From a virus (lineage: Duplodnaviria; Heunggongvirae; Uroviricota; Caudoviricetes), in the IMG/VR virus record IMGVR_UViG_2529292977_000014: a stretch of 5,162 nt of DNA. One strand, written 5' to 3'. The first letter of the stretch is position 1, and every line of letters begins with the position of its first letter. A model generated the notes under the pieces. That model was not told the DNA's origin and made no database searches. It saw only the letters and a list, made by a program, of their open reading frames with translations. A program made the position numbers and the translations under genes. Shown here piece by piece: positions 1-5,162 of this stretch.

Positions 1-234
1 ATGCGTGATGATCGTTTTAATTCCCTGAAACAGGAATTTTCCGGCGTTCCTGATGATGCGGCTGATGCGCTTTCGTCAATGCCAGAGCTTATTAGAGCGG
101 CTTTTTTCTTACTTTCCACGAGAGAATATAAATCAACGGGGCTTGATGTACTGAATATCGCCGCCGATTATGCGGAATATGTGGCAGAGGCGCGTTATAG
201 AAGAAAATTTCCTGAGGATGTAAGCCATGCGTGA
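1..234 (+). CDS. hypothetical protein (possibly 5'-partial; window starts at an in-frame ATG but the true start may lie upstream)
   Basis: Open frame 1-234 (77 aa) ending at TGA 232-234; same strand as and overlapping by 8 nt the next ORF; no recognisable motif. Confidence 0.35.
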   Translation: MRDDRFNSLKQEFSGVPDDAADALSSMPELIRAAFFLLSTREYKSTGLDVLNIAADYAEYVAEARYRRKFPEDVSHA

Positions 235-460
235 TATTTACCACCAAACAATAGACCGCGCATTTCTTGCACTTTCTCACAGTGAAAACATGATGGAAAT
301 ATTTCGCATATGGCTTGAAACACTTGGCGACAATGAACGCGACAAACAAAAATCAAGAATTGCCACGGCATTAATAACGCTTCTTGAGCCTGTAATAATG
401 GAACTGCAAGAAATAGATCTATTGCACGACAGATATAAAGAACAGCACACCGGAGAATAA
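227..460 (+). CDS. hypothetical small protein
   Basis: ATG at 227 preceded by GAGGA (213-217) at about 9 nt; 77 aa; overlaps the upstream ORF stop, suggesting operon coupling; no recognisable family. Confidence 0.45.
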   Translation: MRDIYHQTIDRAFLALSHSENMMEIFRIWLETLGDNERDKQKSRIATALITLLEPVIMELQEIDLLHDRYKEQHTGE

Positions 461-465
461 AAATA

Positions 466-765
466 ATGAAACTTAAATATTCTGGCTTAACTGCCAGTGG
501 CAACACTCACCCTAAATTTACGCGCGGTGATATTTACCGCGACCAGTACGGCGGCACGGTAATGATTAAGGGCGTGGAAGAACGGCGCGTAACCTACCGC
601 CGTGAAGGTTACGAATATGATTGCGTGATGCCTGTTTATCAGTTCCGGCGTGATTTTTCTCTGGTACAGACCGCGCCGCATAACGTGCCCACCAGCAACG
701 CCAGGGCACGGGCAAACATCCAGAAGCTGAAAACCATGGTTAACGGATTCAGGGGCAAGAAATGA
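466..765 (+). CDS. hypothetical protein, translationally coupled to downstream replication gene
   Basis: ATG at 466 preceded by GGAGA (450-454); 99 aa; its stop overlaps the start of the next gene as ATGA (762-765); basic, Arg/Tyr-rich; no recognisable family. Confidence 0.5.
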   Translation: MKLKYSGLTASGNTHPKFTRGDIYRDQYGGTVMIKGVEERRVTYRREGYEYDCVMPVYQFRRDFSLVQTAPHNVPTSNARARANIQKLKTMVNGFRGKK

Positions 766-2162
766 AAAGCGCACCGAACTTAAAAAAACAGCCTTACGAC
801 AAGATGACCGAAGTCATTATTTTTGCGGGTAGTGATGCCTGGGCACATGCGAAACAGTGGCAGGAACAGGACGGGCGACTGGCTGGCGATAATGTGCCTC
901 CCGTTGTGCTGGCTGATGATCAACTGGATGAACTGGCAGAACTGAGAATCATCGACGAGGGGCGCTATTGTGTCCGGCTGTACAAGGCAGGCCACATCAG
1001 GCCATCAAATATTAATGCCATTGCGCACAAGCTGGCGGCGGCGGGTGTAACTGATGCGAATTATTACCCCGAAGGGATGCACAGCCATATGCGGGAGAAC
1101 TGGCGCGAATACCTGGAACGGGTGCGCGGGAAAGAGCCGGCGGAAGAAAAAAACCACCAGCGAAAAACCACGCTACCGATGAGCGTTGGATCTACCGGAT
1201 ACGACACGCAACTGGATTACGTGGTTAAGGGGATTATTCCGGCGGTATCGCTATGCAGCATATACGGGGCTAGCGGGTCCTATAAATCATTCCTTGCCGG
1301 ATCGTGGGCGTGCCATGTTGCCACTGGTCGCCAGTGGGGAGGCCGCAGGGTTGCACATGGTGCGGTTCTCTATGTGGTTGGTGAAGGCGGTATAGGTGTT
1401 CCGCGTCGTGTAAAAGCCTGGGAGGTTGTGCACGATGAGCAGGTGAAAAATCTGTATCTGGTAAACCGCCCCATCTTTCCGGCTGCCCCGCTTGATGTTG
1501 ATGAAATGGTTATCGCTGCCCGTCAGGTGGAGCGGGAAACGGGTAAACCTGTACGCATGATTATTCTGGATACGCTGGCGCGTTGCTTTGGTGGGAATGA
1601 TGAAAATGATTCCCGTGATATGGGGGCGTTTATCCGTGGTTGTGACGAACTGAAACGACGCACAGGGGCCACGGTGCTGGTGGTTCACCATTCCGGCAAG
1701 GATGAGACGAAAGGCGCGCGCGGTTCCAGTGCATTTCGTGCTTCGCTGGATGCTGAATACCGGATACGCAGGGAGGACGCAGGAAGCGAAGCGCTGGTTA
1801 TCTCATGCACCAAAATGAAGGACGCGGAGGAACTCAAAGAAGCCGCATATGACTTACGCGTGGTGGAGCTTTTTACCGACGCTGACGGTGAATTAATCAC
1901 GTCGCTGGTGGTGGTGGATGATCCGCGCCCTCCTGTTGAACTGGAGCGCATCGAGGAGGCAGGGAACAAGACGGAAAACCATACCGCGCTATGGGGGTGC
2001 ATCCGTTCACGCACACAGAACGGCGACAAGTGCACGATCCCGCTGTTACGTGATGACATGAAAAAGCTGGGGTATGAAATGAAAAACTTCCGGCGCTGGC
2101 TGTACAAGCTGGAAAAAGATGGGGTTATTCGTATCGATGGGGATGATGTAGCGCCGCTATAA
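762..2162 (+). CDS. replication helicase/initiator, RecA-like P-loop NTPase (RepA/DnaB-like, AAA_25-type) with a putative C-terminal DNA-binding domain
   Basis: 466-aa ORF. Walker A GASGSYKS at aa 169-176 (nt 1266-1289); Walker B-like hydrophobic run ending in Asp, MIILD, at aa 266-270; LVVHHSGKDETKGARGSSAF motif at aa 306-325, typical of RepA-like helicases; basic C-terminal region (aa ~400-466) resembles a winged-helix origin-binding domain; iteron array begins at its stop codon. Confidence 0.75.
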   Translation: MKSAPNLKKQPYDKMTEVIIFAGSDAWAHAKQWQEQDGRLAGDNVPPVVLADDQLDELAELRIIDEGRYCVRLYKAGHIRPSNINAIAHKLAAAGVTDANYYPEGMHSHMRENWREYLERVRGKEPAEEKNHQRKTTLPMSVGSTGYDTQLDYVVKGIIPAVSLCSIYGASGSYKSFLAGSWACHVATGRQWGGRRVAHGAVLYVVGEGGIGVPRRVKAWEVVHDEQVKNLYLVNRPIFPAAPLDVDEMVIAARQVERETGKPVRMIILDTLARCFGGNDENDSRDMGAFIRGCDELKRRTGATVLVVHHSGKDETKGARGSSAFRASLDAEYRIRREDAGSEALVISCTKMKDAEELKEAAYDLRVVELFTDADGELITSLVVVDDPRPPVELERIEEAGNKTENHTALWGCIRSRTQNGDKCTIPLLRDDMKKLGYEMKNFRRWLYKLEKDGVIRIDGDDVAPL

Positions 2163-2353
2163 AAGTGAGGAGCAAAAGCGAGGGGGATAGAAAGAGGGCC
2201 AAAATTAGCCCGCTCTCCCTCACTTTTCGACCTGTATACATCCTCAAAAGTGAGGGGTAAAAAAATACTTATGAAACACACACATAGAAAAACCGAAAAT
2301 CCCAACTGCGACGAAGTGAGACGCTTGAAAAAGTGAGGCGAAAAAGTGAGAGG
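2161..2353. repeat. iteron-like repeat array; candidate origin of replication
   Basis: Exact AAAAGTGAGG at 2161-2170, 2246-2255 and 2329-2338; exact inverted copy CCTCACTTTT at 2218-2227; degenerate copies at 2174-2183 (AAAAGCGAGG), 2342-2351 (AAAAGTGAGA) and 2312-2321 (CGAAGTGAGA); A+T-rich tract 2256-2300 between copies; located immediately 3' of the helicase gene. Confidence 0.6.
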
Positions 2354-2362
2354 TTGCGAGAA

Positions 2363-2614
2363 ATGACCCAAAAACGCAGAGACAGAACAGAGCCAAAATA
2401 TAAAGCGTTAGACATGACTGAGCACACCTTAAAGGTGGCAATCAGAACGATAGACCGCCACACGCGGGAAGGATACGCGAAGGAACATCCCGACCTGATA
2501 AGCGCATTCATGACCACGGCGGCGGCAAACTTTGCCACGCTGACAGAACGGGAGATTGCCGAAGCGGAACAGGTAACAACCATCAACGTTAAAACCGGAG
2601 AGGTGGAATTATGA
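2363..2614 (+). CDS. hypothetical small protein, coupled to ssb
   Basis: ATG at 2363 preceded by GAGAGG (2348-2353); 83 aa; stop overlaps the ssb start as ATGA (2611-2614). The six-frame track extends this frame to 2333 (GTG), but the ATG with an RBS is preferred. Confidence 0.5.
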   Translation: MTQKRRDRTEPKYKALDMTEHTLKVAIRTIDRHTREGYAKEHPDLISAFMTTAAANFATLTEREIAEAEQVTTINVKTGEVEL

Positions 2615-3021
2615 CGGCACAGATAGCCGCTTACGGGCGGCTGGTGGACGACCCGCAGGTAAAACAGACCAGCAAGGGCACACCGATGACGCTGGCGCGT
2701 ATGGCGGTATCTTTGCCATGCAGCCAGGCACAGGACGGACAGGCGACGTTATGGTTATCGGTCATCGCATTTGGCAAACAGGCCGGCTTCCTGGCTAAAC
2801 ATCAAAAAGGCGATGTTGCCAGCGTATCCGGCACGATGCAGGTAAGCCAGTGGACCGGACAGAACGGAGAAACGCGGCAGGGCTGGCAGGTTATCGCAGA
2901 CAGCGTAATCAGTGCCCGCGCGGCACGTCCAGGCGGGAACAGACGCAAAACCACAGGCACACAGGGTAATCAGCCACCAGCGGGAGGCGATGACCCTTAC
3001 GGTGATGATATTTCGTTCTGA
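2611..3021 (+). CDS. ssb: single-stranded DNA-binding protein (SSB), short form
   Basis: 136 aa. The N-terminal OB-fold pattern parallels E. coli SSB (GRLVDDPQV vs GNLGQDPEV; LWLSVIAFGKQA vs WHRVVLFGKLA; SQWTGQNGETR vs RKWTDQSGQDR); Gly/Pro/Gln-rich linker; acidic C-terminal tip DDPYGDDISF resembling the SSB DDDIPF tail; RBS GGAGAGGTGG at 2596-2605. Confidence 0.8.
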   Translation: MTAQIAAYGRLVDDPQVKQTSKGTPMTLARMAVSLPCSQAQDGQATLWLSVIAFGKQAGFLAKHQKGDVASVSGTMQVSQWTGQNGETRQGWQVIADSVISARAARPGGNRRKTTGTQGNQPPAGGDDPYGDDISF

Positions 3022-3031
3022 GGGGGTGACG

Positions 3032-3304
3032 ATGGTACATGACCGCATAGCGGAGGAACTGGAGGCGAAAGGCTTTTACCGGAGGGCGGCGGCGCGATGG
3101 GGTGAAGTCATGCAGCTGGTGGAGACAGACAAGGAACGGCATCACATCACGATGCGACGGCTGGAATGTTCAAGGAAGGCACAGAGGGCACCGGAGCCGC
3201 CGGATAATTTCGGAGACCTGAAAAAGGCAGTCGATCGCACTTATGCCGAAATGGGTATAGATGGTGCTGGTGATGAAATATGGCGCAATTACCAGGACAG
3301 CTAA
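3032..3304 (+). CDS. PerC-family-like transcriptional regulator (Pch/PerC homologue), tentative
   Basis: 90 aa; ATG at 3032 preceded by GGGGGTGA; N-terminal motif EELEAKGFYRRAAARWGEVM matches my recollection of the conserved PerC/Pch motif (LE-KG-WRRAA-RW); size typical of the family; followed by an intrinsic terminator. Confidence 0.55.
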   Translation: MVHDRIAEELEAKGFYRRAAARWGEVMQLVETDKERHHITMRRLECSRKAQRAPEPPDNFGDLKKAVDRTYAEMGIDGAGDEIWRNYQDS

Positions 3305-3310
3305 TCAAAC

Positions 3311-3334
3311 AGCCGGAGAAATCCGGCTTTTTTT
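3311..3334 (+). terminator. rho-independent terminator (T1)
   Basis: Stem AGCCGGA (3311-3317) / TCCGGCT (3322-3328) with loop GAAA, followed by a T-run to 3334; 7 nt after the stop of the PerC-like gene. Confidence 0.7.
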
Positions 3335-3430
3335 GCACCAGTTGAAACGGTATGGCGCATTACCGGGTTTTCGTCACGGTCAGGCATAGTTACTATCTGA
3401 AACAAACAGACACAACAGAGGAAAAAAACA

Positions 3431-3655
3431 ATGCCGATGAAATTTGATGAGATATTAAAACAGCGTGATAAATACCATGCTGACAACATGGAGACGATGA
3501 GCATCAATGATTACCGCGCATTCCTGGAGACGGGCGCACTGATTGAAAAGGATCAGCATGGTTTTGTGAGATGTGCTCTATCCGGTGAAATGCTGGCGGT
3601 AAATCCTGAACAGATAGATGCATTGATAGAATTTCTGAAAGAGATCAGAGACTGA
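3431..3655 (+). CDS. hypothetical small protein (orphan, terminator-bracketed cargo gene)
   Basis: ATG at 3431 preceded by AGAGGA (about 3416-3422); 74 aa; acidic; own upstream intergenic region (3337-3430) and bracketed by terminators T1 and T2/T3; no recognisable family. Confidence 0.5.
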   Translation: MPMKFDEILKQRDKYHADNMETMSINDYRAFLETGALIEKDQHGFVRCALSGEMLAVNPEQIDALIEFLKEIRD

Positions 3656-3674
3656 GCCAGCACACAGCACACAT

Positions 3675-3697
3675 AGCCGGAGCAATCCGGCTTTTTT
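3675..3697 (+). terminator. rho-independent terminator (T2), near-duplicate of T1
   Basis: Stem AGCCGGA (3675-3681) / TCCGGCT (3686-3692) with loop GCAA, T-run 3692-3697; 26 of 29 nt identical to the T1 region. Confidence 0.7.
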
Positions 3698-3703
3698 GCG
3701 CCC

Positions 3704-3745
3704 AAAAAAAGCCCGATAAGGTCAGAGGGTTCTTATCGGGCTTTT
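3704..3745. terminator. second, possibly bidirectional, intrinsic terminator (T3)
   Basis: A-tract 3704-3710, perfect 10-bp stem GCCCGATAAG (3711-3720) / CTTATCGGGC (3732-3741), 11-nt loop, T-run 3742-3745. Confidence 0.6.
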
Positions 3746-3821
3746 GCATATGAGGTTTTTGGATGCACTGGCGTTCGTGATCGGGATAATCATTTCATAA
3801 TTTGCAACATAACTCAATATC

Positions 3822-3872
3822 ATTGCATAAAATGCAATTCTGATTATAATCAGGACTGGATAAACATCCAGT
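3822..3872 (+). promoter_or_regulatory. candidate repressor- or activator-controlled promoter with three palindromic operators upstream of the capsid operon
   Basis: Consensus -10 TATAAT at 3845-3850 inside a perfect 14-bp palindrome CTGATTATAATCAG (3840-3853); weak -35 TTGCAT (3823-3828, 16-bp spacer) inside palindrome ATTGCA-N5-TGCAAT (3822-3838); third palindrome ACTGGAT-N4-ATCCAGT (3855-3872) near the predicted start site; AT-rich intergenic region following two terminators. Confidence 0.45.
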
Positions 3873-3906
3873 TATGATTTTTTTAGTCGAAGAGGAATTT
3901 CTTACT

Positions 3907-4113
3907 ATGGCTGAAGAGAAAAAAAGCGGTGTTTCGGTGTACATAAGCCCCGAAATCGTGGAGGTGCTCAAGCAGCGCCACAAAAAAAACTATGAAGCTG
4001 GCGTTGCGGCTGGACTGGATCCGCTGATGACGCCGGAGCCGTCGATAGGTTCACTTGTACGCTCTTATTTACTTGCGGCGCTTGGGATGCATAAAAATTA
4101 TGGGGGTGAATAA
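3907..4113 (+). CDS. hypothetical small protein preceding the capsid gene (possible capsid-accessory protein)
   Basis: ATG at 3907 preceded by AAGAGGA (3890-3896); 68 aa; stop TAA overlaps the capsid ATG (TAATG, 4111-4115). The track ORF begins at ATG 3874, which lacks an RBS and sits inside the operator palindrome. Confidence 0.5.
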   Translation: MAEEKKSGVSVYISPEIVEVLKQRHKKNYEAGVAAGLDPLMTPEPSIGSLVRSYLLAALGMHKNYGGE

Positions 4114-5162
4114 TGGCAGGCAAAGCAACGGCACTTAACACTAACCAGCTTTTCATGTACCTGAATCGCGGGGATATTGCGGATTTTAAATTCAGCCCTC
4201 TGTTTACCACGCTGTTTTTCCCGAACGTGGCGACATTCAGCACGCAAAACATCATGCTGGATACCCTGGACATTGAAGAAGTCACCATGTCGGCGTTTTG
4301 TTCGCCTATGGTGGGTAGCCAGGTTCAGCGCGATAAAGGGTACGAAACCAGCACAATCAAACCTGGCTACATGAAGCCAAAGCACGAAATCGATCCAACG
4401 AAAACCATCATGCGCATGGCTGGAGAAGATCCGGCACAGCTTAACGACCCTACCTATCGCCGTATGCGCCTGATTACTGGCAACATGCGCCGCCAGATAA
4501 ACGCCATTAAGGCACGCGTGGAATGGCTGGCGGTGAATGCGGTAACGACCGGAAAAAACATCATTGAGGGCGAAGGCATAGAACGCTATGAAATCGACTG
4601 GAAAATACCGGAAAACTGCATCATAGAGCAGGCCAAGGGTAAAAAATGGTCCGAGCAGGATAAAGACATGCACGACCCAATCTATGACATCGAGCTTTAT
4701 GCTGATCAGGCTGGTTGCCCCGCAAACGTCATGATTATGGGCGCTGAGGTATGGCGCACATTACGCAGCTTTAAAAAATTCCGTGAGCTGTACGATCTTT
4801 CCCGTGGTTCAGAATCCGCCGCCGAACTGGCCTGTAAAAACCTGGGCGAAGTGGTGAGCTTTAAAGGCTATCTTGGTGATCTGGCCCTTATCGTCTATTC
4901 CGGCAAATACACTGACAGCGATGGTACCGAAAAATATTTCCTTGAGCCTGATTTGCTGGTCCTGGGTAACACCAACAATAAAGGGCTGGTGGCCTATGGT
5001 GCGATAATGGATCAGGAAGCGGTAAGAACGGGCGCTGCGGCACTGGGGATGGCGGATATCTCTGATGTGATGATTGCTCAGGGCCTGCTGTTGCCTGCGA
5101 TTGTGGTGCTGGGGCTAAATATCTGGACCACCAACGATAACGCGCTCTATGCGTCGGGTTTA
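4113..5162 (+). CDS. major capsid protein, lambda gpE-like (Phage_cap_E family), 3'-partial
   Basis: Open frame from ATG 4113 to the window end (350 codons, no stop), RBS GGGGGTG at 4102-4108. Strong motif-by-motif correspondence with lambda gpE as recalled: FKFSPLFTTLFF vs FKFDPLFLRLFF; KPGYMKPKHEIDP vs TPGYVKPKHEVNP; DPTYRRMRLITGNMR vs DPAYRRRRIIMQNMR; KWSEQDKDMHDP vs EWSKRDKSTYDP; SFKGYLGDLALIVYSGKY vs SYKGMYGDVAIVVYSGQY; VLGNT in both. Confidence 0.85.
   Translation, partial: MAGKATALNTNQLFMYLNRGDIADFKFSPLFTTLFFPNVATFSTQNIMLDTLDIEEVTMSAFCSPMVGSQVQRDKGYETSTIKPGYMKPKHEIDPTKTIMRMAGEDPAQLNDPTYRRMRLITGNMRRQINAIKARVEWLAVNAVTTGKNIIEGEGIERYEIDWKIPENCIIEQAKGKKWSEQDKDMHDPIYDIELYADQAGCPANVMIMGAEVWRTLRSFKKFRELYDLSRGSESAAELACKNLGEVVSFKGYLGDLALIVYSGKYTDSDGTEKYFLEPDLLVLGNTNNKGLVAYGAIMDQEAVRTGAAALGMADISDVMIAQGLLLPAIVVLGLNIWTTNDNALYASGL

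Follow-up and report, generated by a model that had tools for sequence, protein, structure and literature searches.

The PerC family of regulators is known from PerC of enteropathogenic Escherichia coli (EPEC) and from the Pch proteins of enterohaemorrhagic E. coli (EHEC), and the Pch protein of group 3, PchE, is the closest described relative of the protein studied here, a product of 90 aa encoded at positions 3032–3304 of a 5,162-nt stretch of the IMG/VR virus record IMGVR_UViG_2529292977_000014 (the whole stretch is called the window below). Expression of ler and espA, and adherence, require group 1 Pch only, with groups 2 and 3 dispensable (PMC6265319), and the papers describe little or no effect of group 3 on ler/LEE1 in the LEE (locus of enterocyte effacement) (PMC6265319; PMC11773190 citing Porter 2005), and LEE1-lacZ fusions are reported to be unaffected by the PerC-like genes that EcCIEDL933 and EcCICFT073 carry (PMC11773190 citing Porter 2005). 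Over-expression of pchE represses csgD more than 7-fold and, without involvement of ler, lowers curli, biofilm and HEp-2 adhesion, its deletion slightly raises Congo-red binding, and its transcription is held at a low steady level that drops 6- to 7-fold on SOS induction (PMC6265319). According to a second report, pchE raises fliC about 20-fold together with other class 2 and 3 flagellar genes, and its over-expression lowers eae 2.7-fold (PMC7369912). These functional data were obtained with strains and alleles other than the window's; the experimental strain PA20 probably carries the Sakai-type allele. As to mechanism, group 1 Pch activates only through relief of silencing by H-NS/StpA/Hha/YdgT (PMC4764244), and the ANR proteins (Aar and others) bind AraC-family activators and H-NS (PMC4983702, PMC5570504).

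The open reading frame (ORF) of the window gene starts at ATG 3032 and ends with TAA at 3302–3304 on the + strand (90 codons), as originally predicted, and the motif quoted in that prediction, ELEAKGFYRRAAARW, corresponds to residues 9–23 of the protein. The ATG is preceded at a spacing of 5 nt by a Shine-Dalgarno sequence, AGGGGG, and the ssb stop codon (3019–3021) lies 10 nt upstream. A longer reading of 130 aa from GTG 2912 was rejected, as the Pfam PerC profile begins at M1 of the 90-aa form and the Shine-Dalgarno sequence precedes ATG 3032. A 42-aa "hypothetical protein" in RefSeq (WP_001301569.1; window 3261–3389, + strand) overlaps the end of the gene and crosses its terminator, and is probably a spurious gene call.

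Membership in the PerC family, which had been proposed from a sequence motif only, was decisively confirmed by the search against the PerC profile: residues 1–89 aligned with positions 1–89 of the 90 in PF06069 at 146.1 bits (E = 3.9e-43), the gathering score being 22.6 bits. In PHROGs, the protein matched phrog_994 (E = 3.2e-47) and, more weakly, several other "transcriptional activator" families. The family is small: when 1.84 billion representative proteins were searched exhaustively with HMMER, 105 clusters came up at E <= 1e-3. Alignment with genuine perC, the gene adjoining perB, gave 24 invariant columns, including L10, E11, K13, G14, Y16, R17, R18, A19, A20, R22 and W23, and thus a common N-terminal core, L-E-x-K-G-x-Y-R-R-A-A-x-R-W, which was invariant across 28 homologues. 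Within the family, the window protein was identical to Sakai PchE (ECs_1588) at 81 of 90 residues, whereas its identity to genuine EPEC PerC (plasmid-borne, beside perB) and to a 104-aa group-1-Pch-like protein was clearly lower, at 39–42%. The synteny was also that of group 3, the gene following ssb on an island at roxA-phoQ (O-island 51, OI-51). Judged by sequence and gene order, the window protein is a PerC family member of the PchE subgroup.

Of 5426 complete E. coli genomes, 725 contained the 273-nt gene at no less than 80% identity and 358 contained the same allele (at least 99%), O55:H7 DEC5A among them. RefSeq labels the ORF in O157:H7 strains "PerC family transcriptional regulator", an annotation that also stood with every match listed in the E. 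coli genome search; frameshifted and truncated copies are present in databases. A one-genome-per-species pattern scan yielded at least three loci with relatives, two of which were used for context together with two E. coli islands. Relatives were found in an Erwinia genome and on Klebsiella, Salmonella and Pantoea plasmids, genera that are not known to carry LEE. Searches of phages by DNA and by protein found almost none carrying pchE, so that "prophage gene" is a less apt label than "satellite gene". As pchE, its carrier element and its main phenotypes are already in the literature and in RefSeq, the finding itself is already known.

The gene is indeed carried on an element, as originally stated, namely a satellite of the phage-inducible chromosomal island (PICI) type. 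Window positions 1–5035 are at least 99.96% identical to many O157:H7 chromosomes, including TW14359, EC4115 and SS52. The island of TW14359-type strains measures ~11 kb and lies between roxA and phoQ (L001 8791–19227), with the gene order integrase, AlpA-like helix-turn-helix protein, Icd-like genes, DUF4222, RepA-family helicase, small gene and ssb, followed by the PerC family regulator, a small gene, major capsid, head decoration, a small protein labelled head-tail connector and small terminase. It has the features by which PICIs are recognised, i.e., int, an AlpA-like regulator, a replication gene followed by an iteron origin, a size of about 10–15 kb, and no tail or lysis genes, and by this gene content the TW14359-type island is a PICI-type satellite. 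At the same site, Sakai carries the prophage-like Sp7, in which the gene at the equivalent position is annotated pchE (ECs_1588). Sp7 is the same as O-island 51, CP-933C and EcCIEDL933, the prototype of capsid-forming PICIs (cf-PICIs) (PMC3378721; bioRxiv 10.1101/2022.09.08.507074), for which helper-phage induction, packaging and transfer have been demonstrated (bioRxiv 10.1101/2022.09.08.507074). The window island is the form that O-island 51/Sp7/EcCIEDL933 takes in lineage I/II and O55:H7. In a 2007 array study, Sp7 ORFs were missing in lineage I/II and II strains while pchE was kept in lineage I/II (PMC1890555), a pattern explained by the window-type island that lineage I/II carries.

Several further observations concern the carrier. 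The pchE allele of O55:H7 DEC5A (NZ_CP038394.1) is identical to the window's in a comparison of the 273-nt gene alone. O55:H7 is the serotype regarded as the ancestor of O157:H7. The identical allele in this serotype, together with the array data (PMC1890555), suggests that the form of pchE found in the window, and perhaps with it the TW14359-type island, came first and that the Sakai/EDL933-type Sp7 took its place later, in lineage I. The "plasmid" record CP061267.1 (pSTEC1024_3), which encodes a 100% identical protein, was set aside as an apparently mislabelled chromosome fragment: its 171 kb comprise this island together with roxA, phoPQ and further core genes of the chromosome. The last 127 bases of the window (5036–5162) lie outside the island and belong to codB, the cytosine permease gene; they match NCBIfam NF008241 at positions 245–289, in an in-frame fusion with the truncated capsid gene, which in TW14359 runs on to 1056 nt. 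Among 5426 complete E. coli genomes, not one contained the junction 5035|5036. It probably arose as a chimera during assembly or when the window was produced, or otherwise reflects a rare rearrangement.

The packaging module (window 4113–5035; L001 16113–18690) differs from that of the published cf-PICI prototype. It comprises a lambda-E-type major capsid gene (PF03864), a head decoration protein, a small protein labelled head-tail connector in one record, and a small terminase, and no portal, protease or large terminase is annotated in the window-type island. A satellite with its own capsid and decoration proteins, apparently lacking portal and protease, may represent a distinct piracy strategy. 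The DUF4222 gene at 466–765 (+ strand) encodes a homologue of RgdR (ECs1581) with 81% amino acid identity, and the RGD motif is intact at residues 20–22. On O-island 51, RgdR was shown experimentally to be a positive LEE regulator, and its RGD motif was reported to be important (PMC3378721); the experimentally supported LEE activator of the Sakai island is thus RgdR and not the PerC-family gene.

The explanation that fits best overall, and that we consider probable, is a functional pchE allele on the roxA-phoQ PICI-type satellite, acting in trans on host genes through its N-terminal domain. Family membership, allele identity, gene order and the terminator were established in this analysis. The gene pchE is the last of three in a cassette (ECs1586-like gene, ssb, pchE) that begins next to the presumed replication origin and runs to an intrinsic terminator. 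By analogy with the papers on the 90%-identical Sakai/EDL933-type protein, its expression would be low and basal in uninduced cells and reduced by SOS, and its product would not activate LEE1/ler but would repress csgD/curli and HEp-2 adhesion and, when over-expressed, strongly raise flagellar genes. PchE would act in trans on host chromosomal genes, probably via a three-helix, TPR-like N-terminal domain in common with the ANR anti-activators and not via a helix-turn-helix. Through this domain, PchE would engage a different regulator or reshape H-NS nucleoprotein complexes, in the way shown for group 1 Pch and ANR proteins, and the faster-evolving C-terminal half would set target specificity.

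The N-terminal 50 residues were modelled as three helices with TPR-like neighbours, and the sequence profile test gave no TPR match in the window protein. Searching by sequence, we found no solved structure for the PerC family, the F-BAR/PACSIN matches being at chance level (E >= 0.01). Short relatives of 57–75 aa, which consist of the N-domain alone, scored above the Pfam PerC threshold, and eight of the ten tested scored 19–31.6 bits on ANR. The spacing of A7, E11, A19 and W23 in PchE equals that of the conserved A10, E14, A22 and W26 of ANRs (ANR pattern: PMC4983702). The window protein, although outside ANR by the NCBIfam threshold, is probably a distant ANR relative, its sub-threshold match looking like remote homology rather than membership. 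Between the window and Sakai proteins, residues 1–27 were invariant and all nine replacements fell after residue 27; the codon changes in pchE were 9 nonsynonymous versus 6 synonymous-only, compared with 4 versus 20 in ssb. The pattern of replacements would be expected if an interaction core stays fixed while a specificity region evolves faster, and it would be explained equally well by relaxed constraint. Since ANRs bind AraC-family activators and H-NS and group 1 Pch relieves H-NS-type silencing, protein binding or remodelling of nucleoid-protein complexes appears most likely, ahead of classical DNA binding.

The other features of the cassette are given in Table 1.

Table 1. Features of the ssb-pchE cassette and its flanks in the window
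Feature	Position	Strand	Evidence
Iteron field, AAAAGTGAGG-type repeats in both orientations with AT-rich core, downstream of RepA-helicase gene	2161–2353		Repeat families D1–D3, I2–I5
ECs1586-like gene, 83 aa, cassette gene 1	2363–2614	+	phrog_1231 E = 3.3e-53; 90.5% aa identity to Sakai ECs_1586
ssb, cassette gene 2	2611–3021	+	PF00436 E = 9.3e-16; TIGR00621 54.4 bits; 97% aa identity to Sakai ECs_1587
Shine-Dalgarno AGGGGG of PerC-family gene	3021–3026	+	Read from sequence
PerC-family 90-aa protein, pchE allele (group-3 PerC homologue)	3032–3304	+	PF06069 146 bits; 81/90 vs Sakai ECs_1588; RefSeq PerC family
Intrinsic terminator at cassette end: 7-bp GC-rich stem, GAAA loop, T7 run	3311–3335	+	Terminator scan; -13.5 kcal/mol, z = -3.4
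ECs1589-like gene, 74 aa	3431–3655	+	phrog_1957 E = 2.3e-42; 98.7% aa identity to Sakai ECs_1589
Second terminator copy	3675–3697	+	Repeat family D1; -15.9 kcal/mol, z = -4.3

The iteron field, with about seven AAAAGTGAGG-type iterons and a GC content of 37% at 2201–2300, is likely to be the satellite replication origin. At the same place, Sakai has different iterons, TAACCCGCA, beside a primase instead of a RepA-type helicase; as the two islands differ both in iterons and in replication protein, the replication gene and origin were exchanged as one unit. The window and Sp7 share only two stretches, 451–1116 at 78%, which covers DUF4222 and the start of the replication gene, and 2361–3696 at 94%, a 1.3-kb block with the ECs1586-like gene, ssb, pchE and the ECs1589-like gene, homology with Sakai stopping at 3696. 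For PA20, the transcript study gives 5ʹ ends of pchE transcripts 675–680 nt upstream of the pchE start, as mapped by rapid amplification of cDNA ends (a G 10 nt before a gene start), and further 5ʹ ends 110–115 nt upstream, inside ssb (PMC7369912). In the window, the 675–680 nt value falls on G2353, at the 3ʹ edge of the iteron field and 10 nt ahead of the start of the ECs1586-like gene at 2363; with a transcript start at ~2353, as the published PA20 ends imply, pchE would be the third gene of a short operon.

Downstream, the terminator repeats (3306–3333 and 3670–3697; 28 nt each, 89% identical) flank the ECs1589-like gene, and a third hairpin is found at 3707–3745. In a tqsA-inserted island, L012, the ECs1589-like gene is absent and one terminator copy is left (L012 8274–8300), consistent with loss of the gene via recombination between the terminator repeats. 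An Rfam scan of the window found no RNA family.

Several points weigh against a functional pchE transcribed from beside the origin and acting through a TPR-like domain. Sakai has no conserved counterpart of the DNA upstream of 2361, and the promoter scan of the window found no sigma-70-like match on the + strand upstream of 2361. Foldseek searches against PDB and viral models returned no significant structural neighbour (nothing at E <= 0.001), the match to ANR (NF033650; residues 7–52, E = 3.3e-4) reached 20.4 bits against a cut-off of 32, and small three-helix domains easily match TPRs, so that the fold argument is of moderate strength. The functional data, all from other strains, rest mostly on plasmid over-expression, and 9 of the 90 residues are different in the window allele.

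The first alternative is that pchE serves the satellite's own life cycle by activating or counter-silencing the island's packaging operon from the AT-rich region 3750–3906. We consider this unlikely, and the control of a late promoter there, which the original prediction had offered as an option, is weakly disfavoured. The position of the gene would suit such a role, for it always closes the replication module at its 3ʹ end and directly precedes whatever follows, and the family also occurs in species that are not known to carry LEE. The region is AT-rich (29% GC at 3801–3900), with ATCATTTCATAATTTGCAA and ATCATTGCATAAAATGCAA as direct repeats at a 30-nt distance (3789–3807 and 3819–3837), a perfect palindrome, ATTGCATAAAATGCAAT, at 3822–3838, and a hairpin at 3854–3873; in its letters it looks like a putative operator for a dimeric regulator. 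Its low GC content, repeats and palindrome mark it as the kind of DNA that H-NS silences and Pch-type proteins de-silence (PMC4764244). The promoter scan, however, gave a single promoter-like match in 3750–3906, no better than chance (2 found, 2.2 expected).

Also against it is the DNA that follows pchE elsewhere: alleles with 86–93% identity are followed by either of two unrelated pre-capsid regions or by no capsid module. Sakai Sp7 and two tqsA-inserted cf-PICIs (L012 and L013, with a third type of replication gene) encode PchE proteins identical to the window's at 81–84 of 90 residues, and their pre-capsid region, 96–98% conserved among the three, leads to an HK97-type module of capsid, protease, portal and terminase; with this region, the window's pre-capsid DNA (3697–4112) has only the terminator repeat in common. 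The ssb-PerC order recurs in the tqsA-inserted cf-PICIs and in E. albertii, where the genes run primase, ssb, ProQ/FinO and PerC, followed by an autotransporter gene on the opposite strand and host genes, with no capsid genes after PerC. In the Erwinia genome, PerC directly follows the primase, without ssb, and precedes a tape-measure-type gene. Given such varied downstream DNA, pchE travels with the replication side of the satellite. Moreover, two to three terminators (the two repeat copies and the third hairpin) stand between pchE and the 3750–3906 region ahead of the capsid genes, pchE is transcribed uninduced and falls on SOS (PMC6265319, PMC7369912), and PICI induction is attributed to AlpA (bioRxiv 10.1101/2022.09.08.507074). 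With the intervening terminators, the SOS-lowered basal expression and the AlpA-dependent induction, a role of pchE as a sequence-specific late activator is unlikely. In E. albertii, the ProQ/FinO-family RNA-chaperone gene (L007 7462–7995) separates ssb from the PerC-family gene, which again points to this slot of the satellite as one that collects small regulators.

A related possibility, to which we give slightly less credence, is that the ssb-perC cassette is a conserved working part of enterobacterial PICI satellites and not virulence cargo. The cassette was seen at two insertion sites and in combination with three replication modules and at least two packaging modules, and in the E. albertii and Erwinia satellites, too, the PerC gene comes after the replication gene. 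Here the N-domain would be a single TPR-like hairpin that would bind H-NS-type silencers or a helper or host regulator and so keep the AT-rich satellite DNA and the packaging promoter expressible or replicable, with the effects on curli, flagella and LEE as side effects.

It is very unlikely that the gene encodes a LEE1 (ler) activator like EPEC PerC or EHEC PchA/B/C, tying the element to type III secretion, even though the protein shares the Pfam family and the invariant N-terminal core with genuine perC, the host strains carry LEE, and the published LEE tests concern other alleles. Identity is 39–42% to EPEC PerC and the group-1-like Pch versus 90% to PchE, and relatives occur in Erwinia, Klebsiella, Salmonella and Pantoea, where LEE is not known to occur. 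In the published reports, groups 2 and 3 were dispensable for ler/espA and the EcCIEDL933 and EcCICFT073 genes left LEE1-lacZ unaffected (PMC6265319; PMC11773190), over-expressed pchE reduced eae (PMC7369912), and the PerC-like protein of another PICI, EcCIMP1_025, silences LEE1 (PMC11773190). The predicted activation of ler is therefore not supported for this group 3 protein, and of the suggested link to host virulence regulation, the part that stands is the published effects of the 90%-identical allele on csgD/curli, HEp-2 adhesion and flagella. That the gene is a functionless, decaying remnant in a degraded prophage is extremely unlikely: OI-51 was long annotated as cryptic (PMC3378721), the nonsynonymous-to-synonymous ratio to Sakai is high (9 vs 6) and broken database copies exist, but the gene is intact, with an N-terminal core invariant in 28 homologues and 725 complete genomes carrying it, has a good ribosome-binding site and a terminator, is reported to be transcribed and to show a deletion phenotype in Congo-red binding (PMC6265319), and lies on a mobilisable type of satellite, not on debris.

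A gene that is named, annotated in hundreds of genomes and treated in two dedicated experimental papers carries little weight as a discovery. The description of the TPR-like N-domain and the swapping of the ssb-pchE cassette among satellites may be mildly new, both incrementally. In practice, finding a PerC-family protein on an EHEC satellite is no ground for calling it a "LEE activator", since group 3 proteins behave differently and a related PICI protein silences LEE. If the ANR/TPR-like reading of the N-domain is true, PerC, Pch and ANR would form one superfamily of small protein-binding, H-NS-modulating regulators, which would explain within one scheme why they affect virulence genes in opposite ways.

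Compared with the known systems, the window gene is closest to Sakai PchE (ECs_1588; Sp7/EcCIEDL933), with which it shares the length of 90 aa, 81 of 90 residues, the roxA-phoQ site, the position after ssb and the terminator. The two islands differ in both modules: for replication, the window-type island has a RepA-helicase gene and AAAAGTGAGG iterons, Sakai a primase and TAACCCGCA iterons; for packaging, the window-type island encodes a capsid of the lambda-E type, a decoration protein and terS, Sakai an HK97 capsid, protease, portal and terS/terL. EPEC PerC is similar in length (89 vs 90 aa) and Pfam family and has the core residues M1, D4, A7, L10, E11, K13, G14, Y16-R17-R18-A19-A20, R22 and W23 in common, but it is plasmid-borne (EAF-type, in the perABC operon with the AraC-type PerA), whereas the window gene is satellite-borne after ssb, and it activates LEE1, which the PchE group is reported not to do (PMC6265319, PMC11773190). 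PchA/B/C, the group 1 proteins of EHEC lambdoid prophages, belong to the same family and provide its only mechanistic model, relief of H-NS silencing (PMC4764244). The group-1-like gene, 42% identical to the window protein, encodes 104 aa and adjoins lambdoid lysis genes instead of lying in a satellite; group 1 genes are reported to be SOS-induced while pchE falls on SOS (PMC6265319), and their adhesion effects are opposite to those of PchE (PMC6265319, PMC7369912). EcCIMP1_025 likewise belongs to the PerC family, is encoded on a PICI (EcCIMP1) and does not activate LEE, and its authors noted an ANR-like similarity (PMC11773190). It is about 40% identical to the EcCIEDL933 and CFT073 proteins (PMC11773190) and in Citrobacter rodentium silences LEE1-lux strongly, in contrast to PchE-type proteins, which are described as LEE1-neutral (PMC11773190). 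Finally, the ANR proteins (Aar, Cnr, Rnr) resemble PchE as small three-helix proteins with identical A-E-A-W spacing; unlike them, PchE has an extra C-terminal part of ~40 residues, and whereas ANRs are typically paired with the gene of an AraC-family activator, this island has none.
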